64,000 nucleotides of DNA. Source: an uncultured Cytophagia bacterium (GTDB taxonomy: Bacteria > Zhuqueibacterota > Zhuqueibacteria > Thermofontimicrobiales > Thiofontviventaceae). The DNA lies in assembly GCA_964498785.1 (NCBI GenBank), contig CAZCJL010000020.1:4946-68945 (forward strand), in the 5' to 3' direction. Positions 14,364-39,138 of the stretch are shown piece by piece (position 1 is the first letter of the stretch; the number at the start of each line of letters is the position of its first letter). The position numbers were made by a program, and so were the translations under genes. The notes beneath the pieces were generated by a model. That model did no database searches. It was not told the DNA's origin and was given only the letters and a program-made list of their open reading frames with translations.

Positions 14364-14668
14364 TGAAATTAATAATACCAACAGAATATAAATGCTATTT
14401 TTTAACTGATAATTTTAAGCAATATAACAAAATAAATCACAAATACATTATTATGCATAGAATAATGGAATATGGTTCAAGTGATGCTTTAAGATGGTTG
14501 TTATCCATTTACTCAAAACATGAGATAAAAGATTTTATCCTTAAAAAGGGAATCAAATATTTATCAAATAAATCACTGACATACTATCGCGTAATTTTGG
14601 ACATATCGGAAGACGAATGGAAACGAATATCCTTACAGAAACGCAGAAATCATTTTTTAGCAAGTTAA
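14363..14668 (+). CDS. Hypothetical protein (AT-rich insertion, ORF 1)
   Basis: 101 aa in a strongly AT-rich stretch. No recognised motif. Overlaps the next ORF by 52 nt. Possibly the partner of the DUF1814-like ORF. Confidence 0.3.
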   Translation: MKLIIPTEYKCYFLTDNFKQYNKINHKYIIMHRIMEYGSSDALRWLLSIYSKHEIKDFILKKGIKYLSNKSLTYYRVILDISEDEWKRISLQKRRNHFLAS

Positions 14669-15243
14669 ATGAAATTGAAATAATCAAACATTTTTATCTC
14701 GGAAATGGAACCGGCCTCGCCTTGCAGATTGGTCACCGGAAAATTAATGAACTAAATTTCTATACAGCCGAAAATCAATATAATAATTTTCTTAAAAATA
14801 CTTTAACTAAAAGTGATTTATATAAATTAATCTATGAAGATTCAAAAAATATTACATTTTCCTATGAAAACAATTTAGTTTATTTTTCTGAACACCCCTA
14901 TCCCCTGCTCGGTTTAGTTAAAAAAACTGAGTGGAATTTCGGATGTTTGGATATTAAAGATATTGCCTGCATGTGTCTTTTTAATATTGTAAGCAGGGGT
15001 TTTATTACCGATTTTATTGACTTGTACTATATTATTTTCAAAAAATACAGTCTTGATCAGATCATTTCTTTTTTTGAAGATAAATATCGTTCCATTTCTT
15101 ATGAAAATCAACTCATTTTGAAAAGCTTAGTCTATTTTGATGAGGCAAATATTCAATCGCGACCAGATATGCTGGTTGATATGAATTGGGGGAAAATTAA
15201 AAATTATTTTACGAAATATGTTAAAGTAATGAATAAACTATAG
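14617..15243 (+). CDS. DUF1814/AbiEii-like nucleotidyltransferase-fold protein (putative type IV TA toxin / Abi-like), possibly with a degenerate active site
   Basis: 208 aa. N-terminal FYLGNGTGLALQIGHRKINELNFY resembles the LKGGTAL…R.SEDLDF motif of DUF1814, with Glu/Asn in place of the two Asp. C-terminal CLFNIVSRGFITDFIDLYYIIFKKYSLDQIISFFEDKY matches the conserved K..AL..R..RDLYDLYYL region of that family. Confidence 0.4.
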   Translation: METNILTETQKSFFSKLNEIEIIKHFYLGNGTGLALQIGHRKINELNFYTAENQYNNFLKNTLTKSDLYKLIYEDSKNITFSYENNLVYFSEHPYPLLGLVKKTEWNFGCLDIKDIACMCLFNIVSRGFITDFIDLYYIIFKKYSLDQIISFFEDKYRSISYENQLILKSLVYFDEANIQSRPDMLVDMNWGKIKNYFTKYVKVMNKL

Positions 15244-15251
15244 AACCTAAT

Positions 15252-16094
15252 ATGCGAAATCCAAGAGACCTATCAAAGGTAGGCAAAACTGGAGCCTATG
15301 TCGTTTTGACTATTTTTACATTGTTTGCCATTTACCCGATTTTACGGGTAATTAGTATTTCCTTGCGACCGGGTGATCGACTGTTGAGCAAATCACTGGC
15401 AATTATTCCGGATGGAGCTTCATTAACGAACTACTATAATCTAATTTTTAATCAGCCATTTTTAAGTTGGATGTGGAACAGCATCATTGTCTCAGCAATC
15501 GTAACATTTGTCGGCGTGGGGTTGGCAGCAAGCGCAGGATATTCTTTTTCCCGCTATAAATTTATCGGGCGAAACTCTGCAATGTTTGGATTAATCGCAA
15601 CACAAATGTTTCCGGCAACAATGTTACTTCTTCCATTATTCATTACTCTTATTAAATTAAAGTTATATGATTCATATTTAAGCTTGATCGTTGCATACTC
15701 CGCAACTGCATTGCCTTTTACAACATGGCAAATGAAGGGTTATTATGATACTATCCCGTTTAGCATCGAAGAAGCAGCAAGCATCGATGGTTCTTCTCAA
15801 TTTGGAACTTTTTGGAGAATCGTGCTGCCATTGGCATCTCCGGCATTGGTTATTACTGCGCTGTTTTCGTTTATGACAGCCTGGTCTGAATATCTGGTTG
15901 CAGCCGTCCTAATCCAGGATCAAAGTTTATTTACACTGCCATTAGGTTTAAAAATGTTTCAATCAGCGATGGAAACATCTTGGGGGCTTTATTCGGCTGG
16001 TGCAGTCCTTGTAAGCATTCCGATTGTGACGCTATTTCTTTATCTGAGTCAATGGCTAATTTCCGGATTAACGCTTGGCAGTGTAAAAGGATAA
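15252..16094 (+). CDS. Sugar ABC transporter permease (MalG/UgpE-like)
   Basis: 280 aa, 6 TM. EEAASIDGSSQFGTFWRIVLPLASPAL is the EAA signature. Partner of the permease at 13437..14363. Confidence 0.8.
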   Translation: MRNPRDLSKVGKTGAYVVLTIFTLFAIYPILRVISISLRPGDRLLSKSLAIIPDGASLTNYYNLIFNQPFLSWMWNSIIVSAIVTFVGVGLAASAGYSFSRYKFIGRNSAMFGLIATQMFPATMLLLPLFITLIKLKLYDSYLSLIVAYSATALPFTTWQMKGYYDTIPFSIEEAASIDGSSQFGTFWRIVLPLASPALVITALFSFMTAWSEYLVAAVLIQDQSLFTLPLGLKMFQSAMETSWGLYSAGAVLVSIPIVTLFLYLSQWLISGLTLGSVKG

Positions 16095-16117
16095 TACATT
16101 TTTTTGAGGGAATTAAA

Positions 16118-17188
16118 ATGAAACAGTGGCTTAGTTTTTTCTCGATTCTGATTCTTATTTTATTTATCAACGGATGCGGCGTTTTTCAACCCGCATGGAA
16201 AAAGATTCAATTATCAAATGAAGAATTAGAGACTATTGAATTGCTAAAAATTGATGATCAGACAATTAAAAAATTAGATGCAAAACCGTTATATAAATTT
16301 AATGAAAAAGAGCTTGATACTTATCTCGGTTACTTGCAATTCATTGAACCCGACCTGCGTAAAAGGATTCAGCATCTCGCCCGAAAATGCATTGGCCAAC
16401 AGTATCAAATTTTTTTACTTGGTGAATTCCCAGTTGAGTTATTCGACTCTGAACCACTTTTTTCTCTTCAAAAAAGCGATTGTGTCGTATTTAGTGAACA
16501 TATATATGCTATGGCGCTGGCATTTGATTGGAAAAGTTTCTTTGGCATGTTACAACGTATCCGTTATAAAAATGGTGAAATCAGTTTAGTAACACGAAAT
16601 CATTATACAGAACTTGATTGGAATCGAAATAATAATTGGCTTGTCGAAGATATTACGGATAAATTAGGCGGAAAATATGTGGTTACTGTAAATTCGACGT
16701 ATGATAAGGCAAAATTTTTTAGAAAATGGGGATTAGGGCGCGATATTCACCCCGATACGCTTAATTGGACTTATATCCCCTATCAACACATTGAAAAAGT
16801 AATTGACAAATTGAAACCCGGTGATTTTGTAAATGTGATTCGTGGAAATGATGAAAGCAAGTGGGTTGGGCATGTTGGATTAATTACCAGGGGAGCTAAC
16901 GGCGAAATCAATTTCCTGCATTCTGCTAAACCAGAAGTTCGCGAACAACCGTTACTTGGATATATGCAGGAGAGTCTGAAATTAAATTTATATCGAAAAC
17001 AAAAGAATCAAAAAATTTATGAATATAATGAAAAGATCATAAAAAATCAATCCGATAAAAAATTAAAGACACCTCTCCCCTATTTTTACGGTTTTAAATT
17101 TCTAAAATTAAGACAGGATCCGTTATGGGAATTGGTAAAAATTGATGGATTTCGGGCACCAAAAGTCACAATCCCTTCAATTTATTAA
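16118..17188 (+). CDS. Lipoprotein, hypothetical. A conserved Cys…His pair suggests a papain-like (NlpC/P60- or DUF1460-like) hydrolase fold
   Basis: Start placed at the ATG at 16118 (MKQWLSFFSILILILFINGCG, signal plus lipobox). The tracked ORF at 15980 overlaps the upstream permease. SDCVVFSEHIYAMALAF and later WVGHVGLI are a candidate Cys/His dyad. Confidence 0.45.
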   Translation: MKQWLSFFSILILILFINGCGVFQPAWKKIQLSNEELETIELLKIDDQTIKKLDAKPLYKFNEKELDTYLGYLQFIEPDLRKRIQHLARKCIGQQYQIFLLGEFPVELFDSEPLFSLQKSDCVVFSEHIYAMALAFDWKSFFGMLQRIRYKNGEISLVTRNHYTELDWNRNNNWLVEDITDKLGGKYVVTVNSTYDKAKFFRKWGLGRDIHPDTLNWTYIPYQHIEKVIDKLKPGDFVNVIRGNDESKWVGHVGLITRGANGEINFLHSAKPEVREQPLLGYMQESLKLNLYRKQKNQKIYEYNEKIIKNQSDKKLKTPLPYFYGFKFLKLRQDPLWELVKIDGFRAPKVTIPSIY

Positions 17189-17199: not shown

Positions 17200-17706
17200 A
17201 TGATCGATTCTCAAAAATTAACAAAATCAGAATTACACGATCTTTTAGTCGATGCAGCAAAAAACTGGCTGGCACACGATGGTTTATGGTTTCTTGCCGC
17301 GGAAGAAAAATACGGAATGCCGGCTGCAATTGAACTTGACCGTGAAGCATGGCGAAAATTCACTGTGGTGGAAGCAAAACGAATCATGAAGCGTTTGGGA
17401 ATGGAACCTGGCGGAGGAATTCCGGCGTTAATAACAGCGCTGGATTATCGCCTTTATGCCTATATTAACATACAATCGGTTGAAGCTGTCAGCGCTAATC
17501 GGTGTATTTTTAAAATGAATAATTGCCGCGTACAAGCCGCCAGAAAAATGAAGAACCTCCCTGATTTTCCCTGCAAATCAGTTGGAATTGTTGAATATCG
17601 ATATTTTGCCCAAACAATAGATCCACAAATTAAAACAAAATGCCTTACCTGTCCCCCGGATGACCATCCTGATGATTATTACTGTGCATGGGAATTTACA
17701 ATCTGA
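17200..17706 (+). CDS. Conserved hypothetical protein (DGLWF motif, Cys-rich C-terminus)
   Basis: 168 aa. WLAHDGLWFLAAEEKYG and C-terminal CLTCPPDDHPDDYYCAWEF. Possibly a DUF-type small cytosolic protein. The 3' end overlaps the convergent aminotransferase remnant by 28 nt. Confidence 0.45.
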   Translation: MIDSQKLTKSELHDLLVDAAKNWLAHDGLWFLAAEEKYGMPAAIELDREAWRKFTVVEAKRIMKRLGMEPGGGIPALITALDYRLYAYINIQSVEAVSANRCIFKMNNCRVQAARKMKNLPDFPCKSVGIVEYRYFAQTIDPQIKTKCLTCPPDDHPDDYYCAWEFTI

Positions 17707-18401
17707 TTATGAATATTTTTCAAATTATCAAAATGCTTTTGATTTACATAAAGAAAACCTGTTCCCATTGGCCCAACTAACCATTTCATGCCACCGGCAC
17801 AATAAAAATCGATACTGTATTTGTTAAGCTGTGCCGGGATGGCGCCAACAGCCTGAATACCATCAACGATCAGATACAGACCATGTTCTTTTGCAATATC
17901 TCCTAATTTTGGAAGATTAAGACGGTAGCCGGACAAAAAATGGACATGATCCACAACAATTGCACGAGTATGACTATCAATATTTTCAATTAGCCTCCTA
18001 TAAAAGTTAACCCCGTTGTTTAGCGGAACATATTTTTTTTTCGCAACATCAAAAATATGATGCAGGATATACAAGCTCGCCGGAAATGCGTCGGCTTGTA
18101 CAATTATATTGTCCCCTGCTTTTAAGTCTATCGAGTGCAATGCAATTGATAACCCCTCGGTTGTATTATGAATGAATGCAATTTCATCAGAGTCAGCAGT
18201 AACCATTTGGGCCATTGCTGCCCGGAAGTCATTTAATTTGCTCATTATTTCCTCAATACGGGGCTCACCTGTTTCTACTAATTGATCAATTAACGACTTC
18301 ATGGCTTCTGTGCATTGTAACGGCATCATACCAACAGCAGCATGATTTAAATACGTCTGATTTGATTTATCATTAAAATATTTCCGGAATTTCTTATCCA
18401 T
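17679..18401 (-). pseudogene. Class V aminotransferase (cysteine desulfurase/SufS-like) N-terminal and large-domain fragment lacking the C-terminal small domain
   Basis: 240 aa. YLNHAAVGMMP near the N-terminus, HNTTEGLS, YLIVDGIQAVGAIP and the PLP-lysine region FYCAGGMKWLVGPMGTGFLY are all class V hallmarks. The ORF ends ~30 residues after the PLP Lys, whereas the family is ~380-400 aa. No downstream continuation in any minus frame; the + strand gene occupies the space. Confidence 0.45.
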
Positions 18402-18516
18402 CTTATCTCCTATGATTTAAATTACTTAATAACATACTTATTTTCAAATAAATAGTCAAGTATTATTATAATATAAAAGCACGATCTCTTATTCTTTGAT
18501 AAATATAAAAATACAG

Positions 18517-18545
18517 TTGAAATTTATTAAAAAATTAGTTATATT
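18517..18545 (+). promoter_or_regulatory. Candidate sigma70-type promoter (TTGAAA-N17-TATATT) for the 18745-28296 cluster
   Basis: TTGAAA at 18517-18522, a 17-nt spacer and TATATT at 18540-18545, ~200 nt upstream of the Omp85-like gene. Confidence 0.3.
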
Positions 18546-18744
18546 CAGGGAATTCAGTTATTCGGAGTTAACTATAAAATTATATTTTATCTTAAATAAC
18601 GTACGTTCGAACTAGGCAATTTAAAGCAATTTTAGCCCCGGATTGACACTGATAAATACAGATTCTTTTTAATTTTCAAACGAAATTCGTGTTCAATCCA
18701 GGCGGATCAGTGGCAAATAATAATTTTAAAGGATTATAAAACGA

Positions 18745-20076
18745 ATGAACCGCTTACTCTCACAACGAGATATTTATATTTTATTTTTAATACTAATCCT
18801 CTTTTCTCAGAGATCCGTATTCGCTCAACAAGCTGAAAATGATTCCAGCCGAAATTATTTACAAAATATGAATCCTAAAATTCATCCATTACGTAATCAC
18901 CAAAAAGATCGTCCAGCTTTTGAAAAAGCGATGCGAGTACCAATAAATATCGTTGAATTTCCGTTTTGGGTTATGGGAAGAGGTTTGGAAAATTCACTTC
19001 AATATATTGAACATAATAAAATTTTTGAAAAATTTGAATTTATCGAAGATTGGCTTGAAAAGCATCATATTCTCTTCGAAGATGGATCTCAGGGTATTGG
19101 ATCTGGATTAGGCCCTGCTGTTGGTTTGTTCACCCATAGTGGGGATTTAAAATTAGCGGTTTCATCGGCGTTGACCACCTGGGGCTATCAAGGGCACAAA
19201 ATCTGGTTTGAATTACCGGAGCTTAATTGCCAAACTCGGTTAGATGGTTGGATAAAATTTCAAAATCGGACCCGGGATAATTTTTTCGGTATCGGGTCAG
19301 ATTCTAAGAATGATGACCGAACGCAATTTCAACAATCGAACGTTAACGGAGGCATTGAATTTTCGTATGCTACAAAAAAATTAAATTTAACTGCATCCAC
19401 AGACTTCACAAAATATAATGAAATTAACGATCCTTTCTGGTCTGGCAGTAAGTCAACAAAGGAAAGATTCAGCGAACTTCCGGGTATTGATGGCGCAGAA
19501 TTGGTTCGCGTGGGCTTACGGCTAACTCACCCGGAAGTCTTGTATAAAGGTTTACCAGGCGTTGAAATCGCTGTTGATTTTTCTGCCGATTATTTTTGGC
19601 AATTGGATTATGACAACAATCGTTTTGATAGATATACGCTTATTTTATATCAAAGCATCCCGCTGTTTCATGGGGATAGACTTTTCGCGATTCGATGTGG
19701 CGGCTCTATGACCAATACAAAAGGAAATTTGACTATTCCTTTTTATGCACTCAATAATTTTGGCGGATGGAATTCGCTGCGCGGGTATGAGAGTTTAAGA
19801 TTTAGAACCCTGGATTGGGTGCTTTTGAATCTGGAATATCGATATCCGATTATGGATATCGGTCTTGAAAATGGATTCGCAATTGATTTCCTCTATTTTT
19901 TTGACGCTGGCATTCCTTCAAATGAAATTGAAAATGATTTAAATATTAAAAATATTTTAAAAACTTACGGAGCAAGCATTCGCTTGCGAAAAAAACTCGG
20001 TGTCATTTTGCGGCTTAGTATTGCAAGAAGTTCAGAATCAACTTTAATCGGATTAAAAATTGGAAAGGATTTTTAG
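18745..20076 (+). CDS. Omp85/BamA-superfamily outer-membrane beta-barrel protein (no POTRA array evident)
   Basis: 443 aa with a signal peptide (…ILFSQRSVFAQQ). C-terminal region FLYFFDAGIPSNE…YGASIRLRKKLGVILRLSIARS…GLKIGKDF resembles the conserved Omp85 barrel C-terminus (FFDAGN…GLGLR…) and ends in an aromatic residue (F). Confidence 0.6.
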   Translation: MNRLLSQRDIYILFLILILFSQRSVFAQQAENDSSRNYLQNMNPKIHPLRNHQKDRPAFEKAMRVPINIVEFPFWVMGRGLENSLQYIEHNKIFEKFEFIEDWLEKHHILFEDGSQGIGSGLGPAVGLFTHSGDLKLAVSSALTTWGYQGHKIWFELPELNCQTRLDGWIKFQNRTRDNFFGIGSDSKNDDRTQFQQSNVNGGIEFSYATKKLNLTASTDFTKYNEINDPFWSGSKSTKERFSELPGIDGAELVRVGLRLTHPEVLYKGLPGVEIAVDFSADYFWQLDYDNNRFDRYTLILYQSIPLFHGDRLFAIRCGGSMTNTKGNLTIPFYALNNFGGWNSLRGYESLRFRTLDWVLLNLEYRYPIMDIGLENGFAIDFLYFFDAGIPSNEIENDLNIKNILKTYGASIRLRKKLGVILRLSIARSSESTLIGLKIGKDF

Positions 20077-20077
20077 A

Positions 20078-21796
20078 ATGAAGTGGTACTTTCCGTTGTT
20101 AATGATATTCGTTTTCTTTTACATTGTCAGTTGTGCCGGCCCATCAAGAGATTTAATCGTTGCCGGAAAATTAGATGATCTGCATGATCGAGAACCGATT
20201 CCGGAACCTGAATTGAGATCACCAAATCAATACTATGATTTTATTGATCGTGCAATATTTAAGCAAGTCCATTCCATATTTGACCTGCCGCGGCACGTGC
20301 GAGCAATTACTGCGCAGCCAAAACAGGCAATTAATGTTGATGCGTTTGATGAAGTTCCAAATTCAACATGGTTTACTAACCGTGCGTATCGAATTACTTA
20401 TAAAGAAGCGCTTAATGGCCCGAACGAGTTTGATGGCCCGGATATGTCTGCGCCATGGATTGTAAAAGGTGTAAAAACACAAGGTATTACACCTGGATTT
20501 CGTATTAAGGATCGTCAAGGAGATATCTACTTGTTAAAATTTGATCCGATTAGCAATCCGGAATTAGCCACTGGCGCTGAAATAATTTCGACGAAACTTT
20601 GTTGGGCAATCGGCTACAATACGCCTGAAAATTACCTGGTATTTTTTAAACCAGAGCAGCTCCTTATTAAAGGAGAGGTAAAACTTGTTGATGAGTTTGG
20701 TTATGATCGAATCTTGAAACCAGAGGACGTGACCCAAATTTTGACTTTTGTTCCCAAATTATCCGACGGTCGGATCAGGGCGGTTGCAAGCAGATTTTTG
20801 CCAGGAAAGCCAATTGGACCTTATTCATATTTCGGCACCCGGCCGGATGATAGCAACGACGTATTTCGCCATGAACATCGACGTGATTTACGCGGACTTT
20901 ACGTATTTGTGTCATTAATCAACCATAATGATATTCGTCGTATTAATTCATTGGACATGTATTGTTCGGAGGGATATATCAAGCATTACTTGATCGATTT
21001 TGGCTCAACTTTAGGAAGTGGTGCGACATCTGAGAATTTGCGAAGCGAAGGCTTTCAATATCAATTGGATTATGGTGAAATTGCAAAAGCCTTTTGCAGT
21101 TTCGGAATGTATACTTTTCCCTGGCAACGCATGAATCTGGAGTCCGGTTTTGAATCAATCGGGTATTTTAGCGGAAAATACGTAAATCCTGGCAAATGGA
21201 AACCGAACTATCCAAATCTTGCGTTTCAACGGTTAACAAACAGAGATGGTTACTGGGGCGCAAAAATTGTTATGAGTCTCACTGATGAGATAATCACGGG
21301 TATCGTTAAACAGGCACAATATTCTGATAAGGATGCTGAAAAATACATGACCAATACTCTCATTCAAAGAAAAAATACGATTGGTAAATATTGGTATCAA
21401 CAGGTGAGTCCACTCGATTGGTTCAAAATTTCAAATTTAACTAATGAAAATGGCCAGTTTTTTTCGTTTACTGATCTGGCAATTTATGAAAAATTCGAGA
21501 ATCAGGAAAATACCCGCTATAAAATTGAACTTAAATATAACAAGGCAACTGGTAGCGATCCATCAATTTTTGATGAAACAGTGATAAACACAGGCAAATT
21601 TCTAATTAGCCCTGAGATCGTTAAAATGGCTGATAAATTATGCATAAACAAGAAAAATCCGAATGAGCGTTTATTTTACATTCAAATTTTAACACAACGT
21701 AAAAATAAACCTGACTGGAAAAAAATCGTTAAAGTCCATTTACTTTTTGAGGACATCGATAGCGGTTTTAAAATAGCCGGAATTGAACGAAAATAA
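20078..21796 (+). CDS. Lipoprotein with protein-kinase-like (PKL) fold motifs
   Basis: Start at the ATG at 20078, directly after the upstream stop. Signal plus lipobox (MKWYFPLLMIFVFFYIVSCAG). Candidate motifs are beta3-Lys DIYLLKFDP, alphaC-Glu PELATGAEIIS, catalytic-loop HxDxxxxN in LINHNDIRRINSL, and the DFG metal-binding motif in YLIDFGSTLGSG. Confidence 0.55.
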   Translation: MKWYFPLLMIFVFFYIVSCAGPSRDLIVAGKLDDLHDREPIPEPELRSPNQYYDFIDRAIFKQVHSIFDLPRHVRAITAQPKQAINVDAFDEVPNSTWFTNRAYRITYKEALNGPNEFDGPDMSAPWIVKGVKTQGITPGFRIKDRQGDIYLLKFDPISNPELATGAEIISTKLCWAIGYNTPENYLVFFKPEQLLIKGEVKLVDEFGYDRILKPEDVTQILTFVPKLSDGRIRAVASRFLPGKPIGPYSYFGTRPDDSNDVFRHEHRRDLRGLYVFVSLINHNDIRRINSLDMYCSEGYIKHYLIDFGSTLGSGATSENLRSEGFQYQLDYGEIAKAFCSFGMYTFPWQRMNLESGFESIGYFSGKYVNPGKWKPNYPNLAFQRLTNRDGYWGAKIVMSLTDEIITGIVKQAQYSDKDAEKYMTNTLIQRKNTIGKYWYQQVSPLDWFKISNLTNENGQFFSFTDLAIYEKFENQENTRYKIELKYNKATGSDPSIFDETVINTGKFLISPEIVKMADKLCINKKNPNERLFYIQILTQRKNKPDWKKIVKVHLLFEDIDSGFKIAGIERK

Positions 21797-21824
21797 TCCG
21801 GTAAAATATGAAAGCGAGTACAAT

Positions 21825-23051
21825 TTGCATCACTTTATTAATAAATTTATAATAAAAATTGGCTTGATTTTGATAGTGATCTTTTATTCCTGTGCAAATA
21901 AAGGACTTGTGAGCGAGACATATAACAAAGACTATTATCAAATTACAAAACTGCTTCCGGAAAATAAAATCGAACAATCCGCTGTAAATTTTTTAATTTA
22001 TAGCGATAATCAGGCTGGATGGCGGATACAGCACAAATTTTTGGACAAATCACGATGGACAAGCCCTAAAATGCTACTGTTTCCATTTTATGAGATTTAC
22101 CTGTTAACAAATGGAGTTATCGGCGGTATTAATGGTCTTCGACATGTCCCTGATTATGGTAAAAATGAACGATTAATGATGCGGGATGTTATTTATTCAA
22201 CTGCACAAAAAATGGATGCTGCATTTATTTTAAACATCGGCGATATTAATGCTTACGATGGCAGACGCCCCGATCATTGGGAAACTTTCTTAAAAGAAAA
22301 CAAGCAAAACCATAATTTATTAAATGAAATTCCCTATTTACCGGTTATCGGAAATCATGAATATGCGAATGATCCCCACTATGGTTATCCGAATTATAAA
22401 GCAATTTTTGGTTATCCACGATTTTATGTAATCGAATTTCCGCAGGCAGCTATTTATGTTGTTGATTCGAATTATATACTCGATCAAAATCAATTCATTG
22501 AGAATAGCGTTCAGGACCAGTTGTTTACAAAGTGGTTTGTGCGGGATAATTTTACTGATACCCTCGCCTGGCTGGAAAAAAAGTTAATTGAATATGATAA
22601 GCCATTGACGATCGTGGCAATGCATCATCCATTGGTTACTTTTGGGAAGCATTATCAGGATTGGCACAATCCTGGGTTTGGGAATGCATTAATTGAGAAA
22701 CGAAACAAACTGATCGATCTTTTTCATAAATATGATGTGGATGTTGTTTTCTCAGGACATGAGCATTCTTATCAACATAATACGTCTACGTCCGAGGGCA
22801 GTAAAATACATTTTCTGGTTGGCGGAGGAGGCGGTACTCCGTTAAGAAATCCGCCAGATGAAGAAACTCAATTTAATATTTTAAATGAATACAAACAAGA
22901 GGGTCATGATGTACAAAATATTTCACTGGCGAAAATTTATCATTATTATACAATTAATATTGAAAATAATGAAATGACAATCAAAGTCATGAAAGTTAGC
23001 AAAAATATTGAACTCCCGATAGAGAAAATAAAAATAGTTGCTCCCAAATAA
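21825..23051 (+). CDS. Exported calcineurin-like metallophosphoesterase (purple-acid-phosphatase-like)
   Basis: Motifs GDINAYDG (GDxxY), VIGNHEY (GNHE), MHHP and FSGHEHSYQH (GHEH) give the complete metallophosphatase signature set. The tracked ORF starts at TTG 21783. An in-frame TTG at 21825 yields a clean lipoprotein-type signal (MHHFINKFIIKIGLILIVIFYSC). Confidence 0.7.
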   Translation: MHHFINKFIIKIGLILIVIFYSCANKGLVSETYNKDYYQITKLLPENKIEQSAVNFLIYSDNQAGWRIQHKFLDKSRWTSPKMLLFPFYEIYLLTNGVIGGINGLRHVPDYGKNERLMMRDVIYSTAQKMDAAFILNIGDINAYDGRRPDHWETFLKENKQNHNLLNEIPYLPVIGNHEYANDPHYGYPNYKAIFGYPRFYVIEFPQAAIYVVDSNYILDQNQFIENSVQDQLFTKWFVRDNFTDTLAWLEKKLIEYDKPLTIVAMHHPLVTFGKHYQDWHNPGFGNALIEKRNKLIDLFHKYDVDVVFSGHEHSYQHNTSTSEGSKIHFLVGGGGGTPLRNPPDEETQFNILNEYKQEGHDVQNISLAKIYHYYTINIENNEMTIKVMKVSKNIELPIEKIKIVAPK

Positions 23052-23087
23052 ATTTCTAATAATCGGATAATTACGTTAGGAGTTTTT

Positions 23088-24422
23088 ATGACCGGTCAAT
23101 TAAAAACAATAATGAACATCCGGCGGGATGAACTACCGTTTTCATTGTTCATGTTTACCTATTTTTTTCTAATCATTACAAACTTCTGGATTTTAAAGCC
23201 CTTAAAAAAAGGCTTATTTATCGGTTTTTATAAAGTGCGGGAAGGAGTAGATCTGTTCTCGTGGCATTTATTGGGTTCGCAAGCAGAACTTCTTGCAAAA
23301 GTATTGAATATGGTTGTCGCATTTTTCGCAGTTATTGTATTTACGTGGCTTGCCAGAAAATTCAGGCGACAACAACTTACATATATTTTTTCTGTATTTA
23401 TCGCATTCTGTCTGATTATATTTTCATTTGTAATCAATAAACCCAATGATTTAACCGTCTGGTTATTTTACTTGTTTGGCGACCTCTTTAACACATTAAT
23501 GGTCGCCACATTTTTTTCATTTCTAAATGATAGTGTAAATACTGATTCTGCCAAACGACTTTACGGTTTAGTTGTGCTCGGCGGTGTAACAGGAGGTGTT
23601 TTCGGAACTCAATTTGTGCGCATCTGGATTGATGACATGACAATGATTTCATGGCTCTGGATTTCCCTTTTTATTACCATCCTTATTGCGTTGATAGCGG
23701 GACTTGCCGGACGTATGGTTAAAGAAAATAACTTTGACGAGATTAAAAGCAAACCAACAATCAATGATAAAACAATAAAAACAAACGCTGCTATCGAAGG
23801 TGCCAAATTAGTTTTTAAATCAAAATACTTACTTGCTATTGTTGGTATTGTTGGATTTTATGAAATCCTTTCAACAGTCATGGATTTCCAATTTTCCGCG
23901 ACTATCGAACATTATCTTCATACGGAAGAAGCAATTGGCAAACAATTCGCAACAGTATTTTCGATTACGAACATCGTTGCACTGGTCGTCCAGCTCTTTC
24001 TGACAAGTTTTATTATGACAAAGTTTGGACTGACAGTTGCATTACTGATTTTACCATGCGCAATTATGTTTGGTTCGTTTACATTTTTAGCTTTTCCAAT
24101 TTTATGGGTTGGAAGTTTTCTGAATACGGCAGATAATGGTTTTAGCTATTCAATAAACCAATCAGCTAAAGAAGCGCTTTATGTTCCGACAAGCAGAGAC
24201 GAAAAATACAAAGCCAAAGCCTTTATCGATATGTTTGTGCAACGATTTGCCAAAGCATTAGCTGTTGGTATTAGCTTATTGATTACCACCATTTTTCGTG
24301 ATTTCTCCAGTATACGATGGCTATCCTTAATAACAATCATTGTTGTTGTTATTTGGATTCTTGTAGTTAGATTTGCTGGTAATAAATTTAACGAGTTGGC
24401 TCCTTCAAAGAAGAATGACTAA
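23088..24422 (+). CDS. TLC-family (ATP/ADP translocase-like, Npt-type) nucleotide transporter homolog
   Basis: 444 aa, ~12 TM. N-terminal ELPFSLFMFTYFFLIITNFWILKPLKKGLFIG resembles the TLC N-terminal signature (L.LMFFLI.FNY.ILR.LKD.L). DSAKRLYGLVVLGGVTGGVFG resembles the TLC AKRFYPLFG.GAN motif. Confidence 0.6.
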   Translation: MTGQLKTIMNIRRDELPFSLFMFTYFFLIITNFWILKPLKKGLFIGFYKVREGVDLFSWHLLGSQAELLAKVLNMVVAFFAVIVFTWLARKFRRQQLTYIFSVFIAFCLIIFSFVINKPNDLTVWLFYLFGDLFNTLMVATFFSFLNDSVNTDSAKRLYGLVVLGGVTGGVFGTQFVRIWIDDMTMISWLWISLFITILIALIAGLAGRMVKENNFDEIKSKPTINDKTIKTNAAIEGAKLVFKSKYLLAIVGIVGFYEILSTVMDFQFSATIEHYLHTEEAIGKQFATVFSITNIVALVVQLFLTSFIMTKFGLTVALLILPCAIMFGSFTFLAFPILWVGSFLNTADNGFSYSINQSAKEALYVPTSRDEKYKAKAFIDMFVQRFAKALAVGISLLITTIFRDFSSIRWLSLITIIVVVIWILVVRFAGNKFNELAPSKKND

Positions 24423-27225
24423 ATTAATTCGAAAAATACTGAATATAAATGAAGGTGAAGGATTAAAAGTATTTTTGATGTTTAGCTATATTTTTTTAGC
24501 TATCGCATCTCTTTTAATCGTTAAACCAGTTCGTAATTCTCTTTTTCTGAGCCATTTTGGTGTTGAAAAACTGCCGTACGCTTTTATTTCAGTTGCAGTA
24601 AGTGCAGCTATTTTTACAAATTTCTATTCCAGATATGCAAAGAAAATCCGCTTAAATATATTAATTTTCTATACAACCGTCTCATCCATTTGCTTTTTAA
24701 TTGTATTTTGGATTTTAATATTTTTAAATAGTAACGAAGGTTGGTTTTATTATTTTGTATATGCATGGGTTGCCCTTTTCGGTGTAATCACCACCTCACA
24801 ATTCTGGTTATTAGCAAATTATGTGTTCAATGCTCGTCAGGCAAAAAGATTATTCGGATTGATAGGAGCAGGTGCTATTTCGGGCGGAATCTTTGGCGGT
24901 TACCTGACCAAATTTCTGGCTCCGATAGTTGGAACAGGGAATTTATTTTTCTTTTGCATTTTTTTCCTGCTTCTTTGCCTCGTGATTATGAAAAAAGTCT
25001 GGAAACAAGGCGCCAGACAAACATATTCTGAGCGAATTCAGCAGGAAAAACGTATCCGAAAAAAATTAACTACCGACAAACCATTTGAATTGCTACAAAA
25101 ATCGAAGCATCTTTCGTATATCGCTGCTATCGTTAGCGTAGGAGTAATTGTTGCAAATCTAGTAGATTATCAATTTAGCGCCATTGCAAGTAATATCATT
25201 AAAGACGAAGATAATTTAACTGCTTTCTTCGGATTCTGGCTTTCCAATTTAAGTATTGCTTCACTATTAATACAATTGTTATTAACCGGTCGTAGTCTTA
25301 AAATATTCGGAGTCACGACTTCTCTCTTCTTTCTGCCATTTGGTATTTTAATTGGCGCGTTGGGCATTCTTTTCGATCCCAGGTTATGGTCTGCTGTTTT
25401 TATTAAGGTTTGTGACGGTAGCTTTAAGCAATCCATTCATAAGGCTAGTCTTGAGTTATTAGCTCTCCCCCTTCCAACCTCCTTAAAAAATCAAGGCAAA
25501 GCGTTTATTGATGTTTTTATCGATAGCCTGGCGACAGGAATCGGTGGAATATTTTTAATTATTTTTACGCAACAGTTCGGATTTTCTGTGCAACAAATCA
25601 GTTTTGTTTTAATTATATTCATAATTATTTGGTTTTACTTAATTAAGTCGGTAAAACAGCAATATATCAACTCATTTCGAACAGCAATTGAAAAAAGGTC
25701 AATCGATCTGCAAGATCAATATCTTAATATTCAGGAAGCATCTGTATTAAATAACATTTTAAAAATCCTTGATAGCAAAAACGAGCGACAAATTCTCTAC
25801 ATTCTTCAATTAATTGAAAATGTTAAAAGTGAACGTCTCATCCCTTATTTTAAAAAATTGATCAAACACCGATCCCATGAAATCAAAATACAGACATTGC
25901 GAATGATGAGAAATTATGAACACATTGATTTTGTTGATGATGTACGAAAGCTGACACAGGATTCCAATTTCAATGTAAAAGTTGAGGCGATTCGTTCTAT
26001 TTACGCAAATTCCAAAAACCGAAATCACGATTTAGAAAAATTATTAGTTGATCAGGATATTTTCATTCGAAGTGCGGCCTTACTATCCTCAGCTTATGAA
26101 CACAGAGATAGTAAGGAATTTCGAAAATCATTTAATATTAAAAACTTATTTGATCAATTTGTTGATAAATTTAGTGAGAAAAGTTTTCATCAGGAAGAAA
26201 TTGACTTTATGAAGACTGTCCTTGCAAAGGTAATTGGAATTTCAAAAATGACTGAGCTTTATCCATTTCTAAAAAATTTATTATTCGATAAAAATATAGA
26301 TGTTGTGCAAGAAGCGACAATTAATGCTGGTTTAACCAGACACAAAATGTTCTTCGAGATTCTTATACAATATTTAAACAAACACACTGTCAGAAAATAC
26401 GCTCGTAACGCGCTGGCAGAATATGAGAATGATGTTATTAATCCCCTAAAAAATTTATTGGAAAATGAAAAAGAAGACTATCAGTTGCGCAACGCAATTC
26501 CCAAAGTTTTGGCATTAATTGGAACCCAAGAATCAGTTAATCTATTGTTAGATAACTTGCTTCAGGAAGATTTAGCATTACGGTTTCAAATACTTCGGGC
26601 ATTAAACAGGTTACGAACGAATTTTCCATACTTAAAATTTGGGGACAACCGAATCCGAAATAGTATTGTTTTTGAGAGCAAAAATTACCATAAAATTTAC
26701 TCTTATTTATCAAATAGTGAATTGCTTGATAGCTATAACATCCAACACATACCTGATCATAAAAAAGCAAAAAAATCTCTCGATTTATTATTAACCTTAT
26801 TAAATGAACGTCTTGATAATACTCTTGAAAGAATATTTCGTCTGCTTGGTTTAAAATATTCATCTGGCGATATGTATAACGCTTATAGAGCGATAACAAG
26901 CAATAGCCCGGATTTGCGAGCGAATGCTGTTGAATTTCTCGAAAATATTCTGGACCCGAATTTAAAACGGATTATAATTCCAATTATAGAATATTCAACC
27001 AGTGCTTTGCTATCTGAGGAATTTAACTTCTCCCGAAAAGATGGTATGTTCCTGGAGCTATTAAAAGAAAAGGATTCATGGCTAAAAGTATGTACTATTT
27101 TCTATATTGCCGAGACTAACATGAACCATTATCAATCTGAAATAAAAAAACTAACAATGGATCATGATTCCACTGTTAAAGAAACCGCTGAATACGCTCT
27201 TGATTTATTAATAAATAGAAAATGA
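24415..27225 (+). CDS. TLC-family transporter domain fused to a C-terminal cytoplasmic HEAT/PBS-lyase-type repeat domain
   Basis: Start at the ATG at 24415 (MTKLIRKILNI…). ATGACTAA gives an 8-nt overlap with the upstream stop, suggesting translational coupling. The first ~440 aa have 12 TM, with GLKVFLMFSYIFLAIASLLIVKPVRNSLFL and QAKRLFGLIGAGAISGGIFGG motifs. The last ~500 aa are soluble alpha-helical repeats (e.g. ERQILYILQLIENVKSERLIPYFKKLIKHRSHEIKIQTLRMM…NVKVEAIRSI). Confidence 0.6.
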   Translation: MTKLIRKILNINEGEGLKVFLMFSYIFLAIASLLIVKPVRNSLFLSHFGVEKLPYAFISVAVSAAIFTNFYSRYAKKIRLNILIFYTTVSSICFLIVFWILIFLNSNEGWFYYFVYAWVALFGVITTSQFWLLANYVFNARQAKRLFGLIGAGAISGGIFGGYLTKFLAPIVGTGNLFFFCIFFLLLCLVIMKKVWKQGARQTYSERIQQEKRIRKKLTTDKPFELLQKSKHLSYIAAIVSVGVIVANLVDYQFSAIASNIIKDEDNLTAFFGFWLSNLSIASLLIQLLLTGRSLKIFGVTTSLFFLPFGILIGALGILFDPRLWSAVFIKVCDGSFKQSIHKASLELLALPLPTSLKNQGKAFIDVFIDSLATGIGGIFLIIFTQQFGFSVQQISFVLIIFIIIWFYLIKSVKQQYINSFRTAIEKRSIDLQDQYLNIQEASVLNNILKILDSKNERQILYILQLIENVKSERLIPYFKKLIKHRSHEIKIQTLRMMRNYEHIDFVDDVRKLTQDSNFNVKVEAIRSIYANSKNRNHDLEKLLVDQDIFIRSAALLSSAYEHRDSKEFRKSFNIKNLFDQFVDKFSEKSFHQEEIDFMKTVLAKVIGISKMTELYPFLKNLLFDKNIDVVQEATINAGLTRHKMFFEILIQYLNKHTVRKYARNALAEYENDVINPLKNLLENEKEDYQLRNAIPKVLALIGTQESVNLLLDNLLQEDLALRFQILRALNRLRTNFPYLKFGDNRIRNSIVFESKNYHKIYSYLSNSELLDSYNIQHIPDHKKAKKSLDLLLTLLNERLDNTLERIFRLLGLKYSSGDMYNAYRAITSNSPDLRANAVEFLENILDPNLKRIIIPIIEYSTSALLSEEFNFSRKDGMFLELLKEKDSWLKVCTIFYIAETNMNHYQSEIKKLTMDHDSTVKETAEYALDLLINRK

Positions 27226-27250
27226 TATCATTTAATAGCAGGTTTTTATC

Positions 27251-27676
27251 ATGTTAACAATTGTTGAAAAAGTTTTATTTCTTCAGGATGTGGATATCTT
27301 TGAGAACACAACGACAGAGGATCTTTCCCATATTGCCGCAATTACAGATGAAATCAATTTTAAGGCAAATACTGATATATATCAGATTGGAGATGTGTCT
27401 GACTCAATGTATTTGGTTATTGAAGGTAAAGTGCGGCTACATCATAACGACCGACAGGTGATGATAGCCCAAATAAAAGATGTATTTGGTACATGGGCTC
27501 TTTTTGATGACGAACCCCGCGTGGTAACAGCTACAACACTGCAAGATTCGGTATTGCTCAAAATTAACCGGGAAGAATTTTACGATTTATTGGCTGATCA
27601 CTTACAAATAACATTAGGAATTTTGAAAACGCTATCGAAACGACTGCGTGGGCTGGTGAATAGTGTCCGAAAATAA
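27251..27676 (+). CDS. Cyclic-nucleotide-binding (cNMP/CAP-effector) domain protein, stand-alone
   Basis: 141 aa. FLQDVDIFENTTTEDLSHIA…IYQIGDVSDSMYLVIEGKVRL…RVVTATTLQDSVLLKINREEF follows the cNMP-binding beta-roll pattern. No DNA-binding HTH is present. Confidence 0.7.
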   Translation: MLTIVEKVLFLQDVDIFENTTTEDLSHIAAITDEINFKANTDIYQIGDVSDSMYLVIEGKVRLHHNDRQVMIAQIKDVFGTWALFDDEPRVVTATTLQDSVLLKINREEFYDLLADHLQITLGILKTLSKRLRGLVNSVRK

Positions 27677-27720
27677 CACAAATAGGTCGAAACGGAAAAG
27701 CAAATTTTTTAACTAGATGC

Positions 27721-27749
27721 TTGCAATTTACAATCGTTTTTATTATATT
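27721..27749 (+). promoter_or_regulatory. Candidate sigma70-type promoter (TTGCAA-N17-TATATT) upstream of the REC gene
   Basis: TTGCAA at 27721-27726, a 17-nt spacer and TATATT at 27744-27749, ~65 nt upstream of the ATG at 27814. Confidence 0.35.
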
Positions 27750-27813
27750 GACTAATATTTATTTCTGATCTTGATGATTTATTCTAATTCTTCAAAAAGG
27801 AGATAATTTTTGT

Positions 27814-28296
27814 ATGTCTGAACAGGAATACAATGCGACGATTGTTGTTGTAGATGATGAAGATATGGTTTTGACAAGTATCGGTTCATTCCTGACTCTT
27901 GAAACTGACTATAATGTAAAAACCTTTACCTCGGCAGACAAGGCGATTAAATACATCGAAAATAGTGAAATCGATCTTGTTATTTCAGATTATCTGATGC
28001 CAGAAATGGACGGAATAACCTTTCTTGCAAAAGTCAGAACGATTAAACCGAATGTCCCCCGGATTATTTTAACTGGTTATGCTGATAAAGAAAATGCAAT
28101 CAAAGCCATTAATGAGGTTGGGCTTTTTCAATATATTGAAAAACCCTGGGAAAATGATGATTTGTTAATTATTATTCGAAACGGCCTTGAAAAGAAAATG
28201 CTAATGAATAAGCTTCAATTAAAAGTCGATGAAATAAATAAAGCTTATTCAGATTTACAAAATATACAGCAGGAAATTTTAAAAACATTTGTTTAA
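27814..28296 (+). CDS. Response regulator, receiver (REC) domain only (CheY-like) with a short C-terminal helix
   Basis: 160 aa. IVVVDDEDMVL (acidic pocket), DLVISDYLMPEMDG (phospho-acceptor Asp), ILTGYAD and conserved Lys in EKPW. No output domain. Confidence 0.75.
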   Translation: MSEQEYNATIVVVDDEDMVLTSIGSFLTLETDYNVKTFTSADKAIKYIENSEIDLVISDYLMPEMDGITFLAKVRTIKPNVPRIILTGYADKENAIKAINEVGLFQYIEKPWENDDLLIIIRNGLEKKMLMNKLQLKVDEINKAYSDLQNIQQEILKTFV

Positions 28297-28320
28297 TACA
28301 TATTCGAGTTTAGAAATAAA

Positions 28321-28359
28321 AATCCCATATCATTTCTATTAATGATATGGGATTTTTTT
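28321..28359. terminator. Bidirectional rho-independent terminator between convergent REC gene and nuoN
   Basis: Perfect 13-bp stem AATCCCATATCAT / ATGATATGGGATT with loop TTCTATTA. Flanked by an A-tract upstream and TTTTTT downstream. Confidence 0.6.
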
Positions 28360-28375
28360 AATTAATTAAATATTT

Positions 28376-29923: not shown

Positions 29924-29991
29924 GTGCTTTTATAACCGATTGATTGTTATTTAATGGTACGAGCGATGAATCAATTATCAATTCAAAATAC

Positions 29992-31614: not shown

Positions 31615-31664
31615 GAATTAACTCCAAGTAAATTTATCTTTTCGAATAAAATCGAAAGTTCATA

Positions 31665-33614: not shown

Positions 33615-33620
33615 ATAAAA

Positions 33621-34519: not shown

Positions 34520-34534
34520 AAATGCTGATAATAA

Positions 34535-35095: not shown

Positions 35096-35096
35096 A

Positions 35097-36293: not shown

Positions 36294-36339
36294 TCAACAT
36301 GCCTCTCATGTATTTCTTTTATCGCTGAATTTCTTGATT

Positions 36340-37791: not shown

Positions 37792-37796
37792 AAAAA

Positions 37797-39098: not shown

Positions 39099-39138
39099 AT
39101 CGATCTCGATTTTTTGAGCTATTAATGTAATTAAGTGC

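Follow-up and report, generated by a model that had tools for sequence, protein, structure and literature searches.

Does this locus encode a kinase-fold enzyme that works outside the bacterial cytoplasm and, if so, with which partners and on what would it act? The preliminary description of the window (the whole stretch of 64,000 nucleotides analysed here) had pointed to a lipoprotein gene whose product carries the ordered lysine, helix glutamate, HxDxxxxN and DFG motifs of a kinase core, with genes for an outer-membrane barrel and a phosphoesterase on its two sides. The explanation that we favour, with somewhat more than even confidence, is that the product is an exported, lipid-anchored and catalytically competent phosphotransferase of the protein-kinase-like (PKL) type, working with an Omp85 partner and with accessory genes. 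A point against this explanation is that the periplasm is usually regarded as free of ATP.

Gene, export signal and catalytic motifs

The reading frame extends from an ATG at 20078 to a stop codon at 21794–21796, and the same product results from an independent public gene call on an identical contig. An AGGA-type ribosome-binding sequence is located about 9 nt 5' of this ATG, which itself lies 1 nt beyond the end of the stop codon of the upstream gene. Both flanks are as previously described, the barrel belonging to the Omp85 family (PF01103) and the phosphoesterase being of the calcineurin-like metallophosphoesterase type (PF00149). No Rfam element was found in the interval 17600–28400, where the lone sub-threshold match (Histone3) is attributed to chance, and scans for promoters and terminators gave no improvement over shuffled sequence. 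The GC-skew switch was considered as a possible replication terminus, and a search for a dif site of the E. coli type gave no match.

Table 1. Coordinates of the kinase-like gene, its predicted elements and its neighbours in the window.
Feature	Position	Strand	Remarks
POTRA-less Omp85-family outer-membrane barrel	18745..20076	+	443 aa, signal peptide; near-obligate partner gene
Kinase-like lipoprotein gene	20078..21796	+	572 aa
Lipoprotein signal peptide MKWYFPLLMIFVFFYIVSC	20078..20134	+	lipobox IVSC (residues 16–19), Cys19 = 20132–20134
N-terminal extension motif NVDAFDEVPNSTWFTNR, residues 86–102	20333..20383	+	conserved, 5' of kinase core
Predicted protein-kinase-like catalytic core, ~residues 125–445	20450..21412	+	comprises the hairpin, Lys, Glu, catalytic loop and DFG below
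Glycine-rich hairpin KTQGITPGF	residues 133–141	+	part of kinase core
Beta3 Lys K154 in LLKFDP	20537–20539	+	part of kinase core
Helix Glu E168 in GAEII	20579–20581	+	part of kinase core
Family-specific motif DDSNDVFRHEHRRDLRG, residues 257–273	20846..20896	+	just N-terminal to catalytic loop
Catalytic loop H283-x-D285-xxxx-N290 in NHNDIRRIN	20924–20947	+	part of kinase core
D307-F308-G309 in IDFG	20996–21004	+	part of kinase core
C-terminal beta-sandwich, residues 446–571	21413..21793	+	Ig/fibronectin-III-like; sequence variable
Purple-acid-phosphatase-like metallophosphoesterase, probable lipoprotein (…KFIIKIGLILIVIFYSC)	21783..23051	+	Pfam PF00149 E 9.6e-13
NTT/TLC-family (ATP/ADP-transporter-like) MFS membrane protein	23088..24422	+	444 aa; Pfam TLC PF03219 E 4.3e-21
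NTT-HEAT fusion: TLC-like transporter + C-terminal HEAT-repeat domain	24373..27225	+	TLC E 6.3e-17, HEAT_2 E 1.5e-14

Conservation was assessed in a close set of 34 homologues (39–59% identity) and in a diverse set of 128 cluster representatives (29–41% identity). The N-terminus reads as the lipoprotein signal first proposed: by pattern match, a lipobox of the form [LVI][ASTVI][GAS]C closes the signal peptide, which predicts lipidation, and Cys19 is conserved in at least 90% of the close set. Among 245 full-length relatives a hydrophobic N-terminal signal is present in 233 and a lipobox-like cysteine in 141, lipidation being probably typical of the branch of the window protein and not of the whole family. 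Also, one family member with the same Omp85 gene context is fused to a PAP2 domain that has all three PAP2 motifs, and PAP2 active sites are extracytoplasmic. The lipobox, the signals in the relatives and this natural fusion thus support export from the cytoplasm, in line with the location initially suggested.

Every motif string quoted in the preliminary description is present in the reading frame, and the expected conservation stood for most, not all, of the residues. In the close set K154, E168, D285, N290, D293, H303 and the D307-F308-G309 triad are invariant, and H283 is kept in at least 90% of the sequences. At the lower identities of the diverse set K154, D285 and D307 are each retained at 97% and N290 at 95%, along with H303 (98%), the hairpin glycine G136 (96%) and G309 (75%); the weaker positions are H283, the histidine of HxD, which goes down to 66%, and that of E168, occupied by Glu in 72% and by Asp in 20%. 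In the predicted structure K154 closes strand 150–155, E168 lies inside helix 163–177, the segment H283–N290 is placed between helix 274–281 and strand 291–295, and D307 directly follows strand 301–305. Judging from the alignments, such a pattern is not one of chance: the catalytic residues of a PKL protein (Lys, Glu, Asp, Asn and the DFG Asp) are found in order and conserved throughout the family. Since K154, D285, D307 and N290 are retained, a pseudokinase across the family is disfavoured; the active site appears complete and the protein is apparently an active kinase-fold enzyme, as far as activity may be read from its residues.

The most conserved residues of the family are not those of the kinase motifs, being instead D258, D261, H265, R269, R272, D390, W393 and R431. 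Several of these cluster in the family-specific motif at residues 257–273, which is conserved above the kinase motifs (D261, H265, R269 and R272 at 100%, D258 at 99% and R268 at 97% in the 128 sequences) and is a candidate substrate- or cofactor-binding site. The N-terminal extension has a conserved motif of its own, modelled with a pLDDT of 91–93, in which N86, S96, W98 and N101 are invariant in the close set, and S96 (95%), W98 (91%) and R102 (at least 97%) stand out in the diverse one.

PKL folds are known with other or no chemistry, as illustrated by AMPylation in SelO, glutamylation in SidJ and the pseudokinase Fam20A. It is rather unlikely, in our estimate, that the present family uses the same fold for AMPylation, glutamylation or nucleotide hydrolysis, or with a donor other than ATP such as polyphosphate, pyrophosphate or undecaprenyl pyrophosphate. 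Such alternative activities are documented in PKL families (the KINtaro paper, PMC10870513), the eight top-conserved residues hint at a family-specific ligand site, and a periplasm presumed to be without ATP makes a different donor more likely; on the other hand, the Lys, Asp-x4-Asn and DFG Asp are kept in canonical order and spacing, and the linkage to nucleotide-transporter-like genes (see below) favours a nucleotide co-substrate.

Fold assignment and known kinases

The AF2 model of the lipoprotein (pLDDT 90.5, pTM 0.90) has a bilobal kinase fold that is recognisable by structure comparison, which places it among PKL folds, as anticipated in the preliminary description, with CtkA, Fam20C and CotH as closest structural relatives. 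The kinase assignment is based on predicted structure and motifs because sequence and profile searches gave nothing relevant: no kinase match to the lipoprotein was obtained in Pfam, in NCBIfam, by phmmer against the PDB or by hmmsearch of the PDB with the family profile, no Pfam family matched at E ≤ 0.1, and an hhalign comparison of the family profile with E. coli HipA gave no match (probability 0.1%). Equivalence to residues of solved kinases was established from motif order and secondary structure. The best reading of the model is that the protein belongs with the atypical kinases of the CtkA/HipA/Fam20/PI4KII/CotH type, and membership in each of the established families was considered and rejected.

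For HipA_C/CtkA-like proteins (PF07804) there is no Pfam match, the PDB profile search retrieved no kinase and the hhalign probability is the one given above. With CtkA itself (JHP940, a Ser/Thr kinase of Helicobacter pylori; PDB 3akj) the window protein shares 13% identity, a relationship that is undetectable at the sequence or profile level, and the 275-residue chain of the solved entry is devoid of an N-terminal extension, an FN3-like tail and an Omp85 partner; CtkA, moreover, has been connected with type IV secretion (PMC5536186) and is not a lipoprotein. HipA/HipT and CotH (PDB 5k98, 7ab3, 7wcf, 5jda) are set apart by the lack of any HipA_C or CotH (PF08757) profile match in the window protein, by the nature of HipA as a cytoplasmic toxin with its HipB antitoxin, and by the occurrence of CotH without Omp85 or NTT context. 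The PI3/PI4 kinases (PF00454), represented by PI4KIIalpha and Legionella MavQ (PDB 4pla/4hnd, 7m7a), are cytosolic and have a DRHxxN loop, whereas the window protein has H-x-D-xxxx-N (NHNDIRRIN) and no PF00454 match. Towards Fam20C, the Golgi casein kinase (PDB 4kqa, 5yh0, 5xom), identity is 8–13% and a Pfam Fam20 (PF06702) match is absent, so that the likeness is purely structural; Fam20C is a eukaryotic type II membrane or secreted protein and has no Omp85 partner. It works in a compartment that is topologically outside the cytosol and into which ATP is imported, and ACP5, an extracellular purple acid phosphatase, removes some of the phosphates that it adds. In the window a purple-acid-phosphatase-like gene lies downstream of the kinase-like gene, which is to be taken as an analogy only.

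The window gene founds a large unannotated bacterial family, which falls into about 4,060 clusters when grouped at 50% identity, every one of them named "hypothetical", with no Pfam or NCBIfam model. Of 185,579 species genomes at least 444 contain a member, and the family ranges over FCB-group candidate phyla, Acidobacteriota, Gemmatimonadota and Zixibacteria. The family is absent from the kinase catalogues checked, and no match was found to the Pfam-based families among the 72 PKL families of KINtaro.

The Omp85 partner

The gene directly upstream matches the Omp85 domain (PF01103, E 9.6e-7) and has no Pfam POTRA match; NCBIfam NF047779, 'Omp85 family OMP', is hit at E 6e-18, under the family cut-off. 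Its AF2 model is of low confidence (pLDDT 53.7), having been built with few relatives (5–9 from the search, even with a 57-sequence profile), and was used solely for strand count and fold class: 16 strands are predicted across residues 125–439. Within the SLRGY motif R346 and G347 are invariant in alignment A5, and in alignment A4 each is kept in 90% or more of the sequences. The loop-6 signature (V/L)RG(F/Y), the 16 strands of the low-confidence model and the lack of POTRA domains correspond to the 'noNterm' class of the Omp85 superfamily, barrels without N-terminal domains whose function was left open (PMC4104836).

In 68 of 74 species loci the family gene is directly preceded by a co-oriented gene for an Omp85 homologue; in 2 further species such a gene lies directly downstream, and it is upstream in all 6 of 6 metagenomic homologues. 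The partnership is thus near-obligate and, along with the NTT link described below, provides the strongest contextual signal, neither having been part of the preliminary description. Pairs of a barrel and a lipoprotein are likewise formed by Slam and surface lipoproteins, LptD/LptE and BamA/BamB-E; unlike the window lipoprotein, none of these known partners (Slam cargo, LptE, BamB-E) is a kinase-fold enzyme.

Adjacency of barrel and cargo is a signature of Slam/surface-lipoprotein and TpsB/TpsA pairs, and the strict adjacency and co-orientation of barrel and exported protein could likewise reflect a translocon and its cargo. The Omp85 protein would then flip the lipoprotein to the surface, or release its non-lipidated versions, and the enzyme would act on extracellular or surface substrates, a view to which the closest structural relatives lend weight, as CtkA, Fam20C and CotH all work outside the cytoplasm of their producer. 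We regard this as unlikely, although deserving consideration. TpsB translocases recruit their cargo via POTRA domains, which the partner lacks; the acidic Bacteroidota-type surface-export motif after the lipobox cysteine was looked for and is found in only 1 of the 141 relatives with such a cysteine; and a surface site would make the nucleotide supply harder and leave the linkage to NTT genes unexplained.

Lipoprotein partners are also typical of Omp85 and LptD-type barrels, and the near-obligate pairing, together with a translational coupling that suggests stoichiometric production, would suit a structural subunit without catalytic function, which assists a specialised Omp85 machine (compare BamB-E/BamA and LptE/LptD) and employs its kinase fold for binding only. 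Pseudokinases, however, normally lack at least one of the Lys, Asp, Asn and DFG Asp, whereas here all four are conserved at 95% or more across thousands of divergent members, as is G136 at its 96%, and we consider such a role very improbable.

Linked transporter and phosphoesterase genes and the possible role

Further downstream lie a single-domain NTT-like gene and an NTT-HEAT fusion, the latter with a likely start at ATG 24415. Both exceed the Pfam TLC gathering cut-off of 21 bits (75.7 and 62 bits, respectively) and neither attains that of the NTP/NDP exchange transporter group TIGR00769 (66 and 42 bits against 387); because these scores are far under the exchanger cut-off, the substrate of the transporters is not assignable. 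TLC-like genes are located within 10 kb of the family gene in 37 of 80 species (about 46%), a linkage which is hence not obligatory in cis, and they are densest close to the pair, with 12.4 per 100 kb inside the first 2 kb and none left at 8–10 kb; 45 of 54 are on the strand of the pair. TLC is the commonest Pfam family in operon-chain neighbours (downstream 24 of 84, upstream 6 of 75). Energy parasitism is an unlikely role for the NTT-like genes of this organism, since its complex I operon looks complete and genes of sugar and glycogen metabolism are present as well.

The NTT-HEAT architecture is widespread and its role was left open by Major et al. 2017 (PMC5381601), who report NTT genes in Latescibacteria, Marinimicrobia, Poribacteria, Acidobacteria, Gemmatimonadetes and Bacteroidetes. 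These NTTs of free-living bacteria thus share phyla with the kinase-like family, and the window likewise has one single-domain gene and one fusion directly downstream; PMC5381601 names neither a function for them nor a kinase-like or Omp85 link, the linkage being new here. The characterised NTTs are importers (PMC5381601; PMC1951785), PamNTT1 showing a bias towards ATP import and an independence of membrane potential (PMC1951785), which weighs against the favoured explanation.

The metallophosphoesterase has an uncertain start, at TTG 21783 or TTG 21825, and with GTG 21876, the start in the public gene call, the signal would be lost. In the PDB its sequence comes closest to tartrate-resistant/purple acid phosphatases (E 2.7e-7). 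Weak NCBIfam matches to anti-phage phosphoesterases, at 18 bits against cut-offs of 420–790, reflect generic metallophosphoesterase similarity. In other species 13 of 84 downstream neighbours on the same strand have a Metallophos domain, and same-strand counts for PAP2, PhoD and 5'-nucleotidase are 5, 2 and 1; overall, phosphoesterases accompany the pair in 17 of 80 species by tblastn (about 20%), again not an obligatory linkage in cis. Two-component systems are frequent among the neighbours of the family gene.

Such a set of genes would also be compatible with nutrient scavenging, in which the phosphoesterases would free phosphate, the NTT-like proteins would import nucleotides and the lipoprotein would bind or process a nucleotide or phosphoester at an outer-membrane channel. 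The recurrent neighbours are indeed phosphate-releasing extracytoplasmic types (purple-acid-phosphatase-like Metallophos, PAP2, PhoD, 5'-nucleotidase), import is the direction of the characterised NTTs, and two-component systems often adjoin. Nevertheless, mere binding does not need Asp285 and Asn290, which are 95–97% conserved, we know of no Omp85 barrel that serves as a solute channel, phosphoesterases are found in a minority of species, and neither a Pho-box nor genes for phosphate transporters turned up within the window; scavenging is therefore, in our view, improbable.

The linkage suggests instead a phosphorylation system outside the cytoplasm. In our favoured explanation, a phosphotransferase working with its Omp85 partner, the protein would combine three parts, namely the conserved extension at its N-terminus, an atypical-kinase core with all its elements and the C-terminal Ig/FN3-like beta-sandwich, and the lipoprotein would be made together with its dedicated POTRA-less barrel. 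We infer that it is catalytic and acts at the outer membrane in physical association with this barrel, on the periplasmic rather than the surface side, where a nucleotide would serve as phosphate donor and a component of the envelope (a protein, lipid/LPS or glycan) as acceptor. The motif at residues 86–102 and a conserved segment near the N-terminus of the Omp85 protein are candidate contact sites. The NTT-like inner-membrane transporters would most plausibly exchange the nucleotide substrate and product with the cytoplasm, and the extracytoplasmic-type phosphoesterases may reverse the modification or clear nucleotide products. A bolder version, which we put forward tentatively and hold to be doubtful, is that of a self-contained system with an energy supply of its own, in which the divergent NTT and NTT-HEAT proteins would export ATP into the periplasm in exchange for ADP, an Omp85-docked Fam20/CtkA-like kinase would modify an outer-membrane or secreted substrate, and purple-acid-phosphatase-like, PAP2 or PhoD enzymes would reverse this. 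If true, bacteria would have a counterpart to the secretory-pathway kinase system of eukaryotes, with its lumenal ATP import, Fam20C and extracellular acid phosphatase, and the cluster would provide a first function for the NTT genes of free-living bacteria and for a 'noNterm' Omp85.

The locus thus brings forward a new and large kinase-fold family, as yet without name or model, of which the window member is apparently an active kinase in a compartment usually described as ATP-free. Its linkage makes testable two questions which PMC5381601 and PMC4104836, respectively, did not settle: the role of NTT and NTT-HEAT proteins in free-living bacteria and that of POTRA-less Omp85 proteins. If the activity is confirmed, it would reveal regulated phosphorylation of the envelope in widespread, mostly uncultured environmental phyla.

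The predicted fold of the kinase-like lipoprotein

The gene that the preliminary description had read as a lipoprotein with kinase-core motifs was recovered with the same coordinates, and the 572-residue product agrees with that of a public contig of identical sequence, whose genes were called independently. The N-terminal sequence MKWYFPLLMIFVFFYIVSC closes with a classical lipobox (IVSC, with Cys19), which bears out the proposed signal, and the four motif strings quoted in that description are all found, at residues 152–157, 166–170, 282–290 and 306–309. Among 245 full-length relatives, 233 have an N-terminal hydrophobic signal and 141 a lipobox-like cysteine, the next residue being Gly, Ser or Ala in 116 of the latter; the acidic motif marking Bacteroidota surface lipoproteins is present in only one of the 141. 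As judged by these signals, the protein is exported and of the lipid-anchored type.

The AlphaFold2 model (34-sequence alignment; pLDDT 90.5, pTM 0.90) has the catalytic motifs placed where a kinase needs them. Indeed, modelled strands 127–133 and 140–144 form a glycine-rich hairpin, K154 lies at the end of strand 150–155 (β3), E168 within helix 163–177 (helix C), H283-D285-N290 between helix 274–281 and strand 291–295, and D307 after strand 301–305, the Asp-to-Asn spacing being five residues, as in classical kinases. By structural comparison the predicted fold is of the protein-kinase-like (PKL) type, its neighbours being the protein kinases CtkA (score 14.9), Fam20C (13.3–13.7 for Golgi casein kinase/Fam20 entries), CotH (12.4), HipA/HipT-type proteins (10.6–12.0) and actin-fragmin kinase (11.5), together with the lipid kinases PI4KIIα (12.7–12.8) and MavQ (10.7) and a glycan kinase (Fam20B-type, 5xom); since these comprise protein, lipid and glycan kinases, they do not allow the acceptor class to be called. 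For a prediction, the fold assignment is solid.

Pfam and NCBIfam scans of the protein gave no match, PDB searches by sequence or family profile recovered no kinase, and hhalign against E. coli HipA gave no match, so that the family, isolated at the sequence level, is placed in the PKL superfamily on the strength of its motifs and predicted structure. It is predicted to fold and work like secreted or atypical kinases such as CtkA and Fam20C, yet every family-level membership test run was negative, and membership of Fam20, HipA_C, PI3_PI4_kinase and CotH was rejected. Among the 72 PKL families of KINtaro none of the Pfam-based ones matches, the Legionella-, oral-microbiome- and Toxoplasma-derived entries lying outside this comparison.

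Size and conservation of the family

This is a large family without annotation. At least 2,963 relatives were recovered from 5.8 billion proteins by a word-indexed search, those among the matches listed being all unnamed or "hypothetical", devoid of precomputed Pfam domains and distributed over Latescibacterota, Krumholzibacteria, Zixibacteria, Calditrichia, Marinimicrobia, Poribacteria and others. When 1.84 billion cluster representatives were searched exhaustively with the family profile, 4,060 clusters matched at E ≤ 1e-3 (1,485 at E ≤ 1e-30). With each species represented by a single genome, members occur in at least 444 species, which adds, among the matches listed, Acidobacteriota, Gemmatimonadota, KSB1, Ignavibacteria, Bacteroidota and Myxococcota.

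K154, E168, D285, N290, D293, H303 and D307-F308-G309 are invariant in 34 homologues (39–59% identity). In 128 diverse representatives (29–41% identity) conservation amounts to 97% for K154, D285 and D307, 95% for N290, 98% for H303 and 96% for G136 of the glycine-rich hairpin; E168 is Glu in 72% and Asp in 20%, and H283 is kept in 66%. The catalytic residues are thus retained in close and distant sequences alike, and not lost among homologues, the outcome that the preliminary description had named as counting against a kinase. The predicted kinase fold is accompanied by a full conserved catalytic set, and in respect to the proposal that the protein is a non-catalytic accessory of the barrel, this conservation makes it the least likely of the alternatives. 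Above the kinase motifs rank D258, D261, H265, R269, R272, G313, D390, W393 and R431 (99–100% in the 128 representatives), some of them in a family-specific motif (see table); we conjecture that this Arg/His/Asp/Trp-rich site would be suited to binding a glycan or an anionic ligand. Alternatively to a kinase reaction, the fold may carry another chemistry, or use another phosphodonor.

The Omp85 partner and the gene neighbourhood

Features of the window
Feature	Position	Strand	Remarks
AmiA-like N-acetylmuramoyl-L-alanine amidase-like gene	15980-17188	+	lipoprotein-type signal; directly precedes DUF6125 gene
DUF6125 protein gene	17200-17706	+	Pfam E 5e-82; upstream of cluster
Class-V aminotransferase ORF	17679-18401	-	240 aa; 3' end overlaps DUF6125 gene
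Omp85 barrel gene	18745-20076	+	directly upstream of kinase-like lipoprotein; TAG 20074-20076
Kinase-like lipoprotein gene	20078-21796	+	ATG 20078; stop 21794-21796
Motif DDxNDxxxHxHRRxLRG	20846-20896	+	residues 257-273; shortly ahead of catalytic loop
Metallophosphoesterase, purple-acid-phosphatase-like	21783-23051	+	
NTT-like transporter gene	23088-24422	+	
NTT-HEAT fusion gene	24373-27225	+	
Stand-alone response-regulator receiver	27814-28296	+	160 aa; after NTT-HEAT gene
Complex I operon	28376-41979	-	
ORFs of 481, 417 and 208 aa	5542-6987, 7558-8811, 14617-15243	+	no Pfam family at E ≤ 1e-5

The flanking genes are those of the preliminary description, an outer-membrane barrel (Omp85) upstream and a phosphoesterase downstream. 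The Omp85 stop codon falls one base short of the kinase-like ATG, which has an AGGA-type ribosome-binding sequence about 9 nt on its 5' side, and for these reasons translation of the two is probably coupled. Within our sample of 80 species loci, a relative of this Omp85 is the next gene upstream, in the same orientation, in 68 of the 74 with enough upstream sequence, and immediately downstream in two further loci; an Omp85 gene of 437–458 aa is also directly upstream in six of six distant metagenomic homologues. The barrel, whose closest named relative is from candidate division KSB1, matched no POTRA domain in Pfam, bears the loop-6 RG(Y/F) motif, and in a low-confidence model has 16 predicted strands and BamA, Sam50, TamA and FhaC barrels as best structural matches. 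It fits the "noNterm" class of Omp85 proteins (without N-terminal domains), of unknown function (PMC4104836). In a rival reading, the enzyme may reach the cell surface by way of its partner barrel, much as in Slam or two-partner systems.

ATP/ADP-transporter-like (TLC/NTT) genes occur within 10 kb of the Omp85/kinase-like pair in 37 of the 80 loci, that is under half of the species; their density per 100 kb falls over successive 2-kb bins from 12.4 to 5.1, 1.8, 0.5 and 0, and 45 of 54 are on the strand of the pair. Pfam counts among its same-strand neighbours (84 downstream, 75 upstream) gave TLC in 24 and 6, respectively, and, overall, HEAT_2 in 9, Metallophos in 13, PAP2 in 5, PhoD in 2 and 5'-nucleotidase in 1, with several two-component sensors or regulators. 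A dedicated Omp85 barrel is thus co-produced with the kinase-like lipoprotein, and often so are NTT-like transporters and extracytoplasmic-type phosphoesterases; the cluster is at its fullest in the window (Omp85, kinase-like lipoprotein, metallophosphoesterase, NTT-like and NTT-HEAT). The window's phosphoesterase, with tartrate-resistant acid phosphatases as best solved relatives, probably carries a lipoprotein signal as well.

A natural fusion of the kinase-like domain to a C-terminal PAP2 domain with all three PAP2 motifs is found in P0236 (locus L090, 3628–5976), which has a signal peptide without lipobox and a long Pro/Ala/Ser-rich linker between the domains. The preceding gene matches the partner-Omp85 profile (hhalign 99.8%, E 1e-27), and the end of this divergent Omp85 overlaps the start of the fusion gene by 4 nt. 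PAP2 active sites face the extracytoplasmic side, and the fusion therefore supports an extracytoplasmic location and a kinase/phosphatase relationship. Stand-alone PAP2 genes lie just upstream of Omp85 in Zixibacteria (L003, a Pfam PAP2 call, and its duplicate L065), and genes in a similar position occur in L012 and L017.

Also in the window, the DUF6125 and AmiA-like genes are both present on the identical public contig, and the aminotransferase ORF, covering positions 2–222 of a 371-position profile, may be a truncated gene or pseudogene. At ~27200–28400 the GC skew changes sign, with a cumulative peak, and gene orientation switches from the + strand (genes up to 28296) to the - strand (from the complex I operon onwards), as expected of a replication terminus or simply of a convergent gene boundary; a search of the window for a dif site of the E. 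coli type was negative. Histidine kinases and response regulators often adjoin the pair in other species.

Possible role of the cluster

Complex I, an ABC sugar transporter and glycogen enzymes in the window indicate that the host is a free-living respiring bacterium and not an energy parasite. Caveats to the role proposed below are that the window's transporters score far under the NTP/NDP-exchanger cut-off, that the characterised chlamydial NTT is biased towards importing ATP and does not depend on membrane potential (PMC1951785), and that NTT genes accompany the pair in fewer than half of the species. We infer that the kinase-like lipoprotein would be an active phosphotransferase working with the barrel at the outer membrane, that the NTT-like proteins would swap its nucleotide substrate and product over the inner membrane, and that the phosphoesterases would undo the phosphate mark or clear nucleotide products; activity, substrate, topology and transporter role all belong to this inference. 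The cluster may, alternatively, serve phosphate or nucleotide scavenging.

The preliminary interpretation, a kinase-like fold outside the cytoplasm, is supported by predicted fold, motif conservation and export signals. A full-text literature search returned no paper on such a protein or on an Omp85-partnered kinase, and from these predictions we rate the family as a new PKL family with an extracytoplasmic location, a POTRA-less Omp85 as near-obligate partner and repeated linkage to NTT and phosphoesterase genes. A 2017 survey that described NTT-HEAT proteins as widespread left their role open (PMC5381601), and the literature search found nothing later on it. The NTT/NTT-HEAT tandem of the window recurs downstream of the Omp85/kinase-like pair in several phyla (L008, L012, L013, L020, L026, L033, L048, L071 and L080), and its linkage to the pair may offer a first hint, from gene context, of the NTT-HEAT role. 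The gene context joins three poorly understood subjects, namely periplasmic phosphorylation, the NTTs of free-living bacteria and the noNterm Omp85 proteins.
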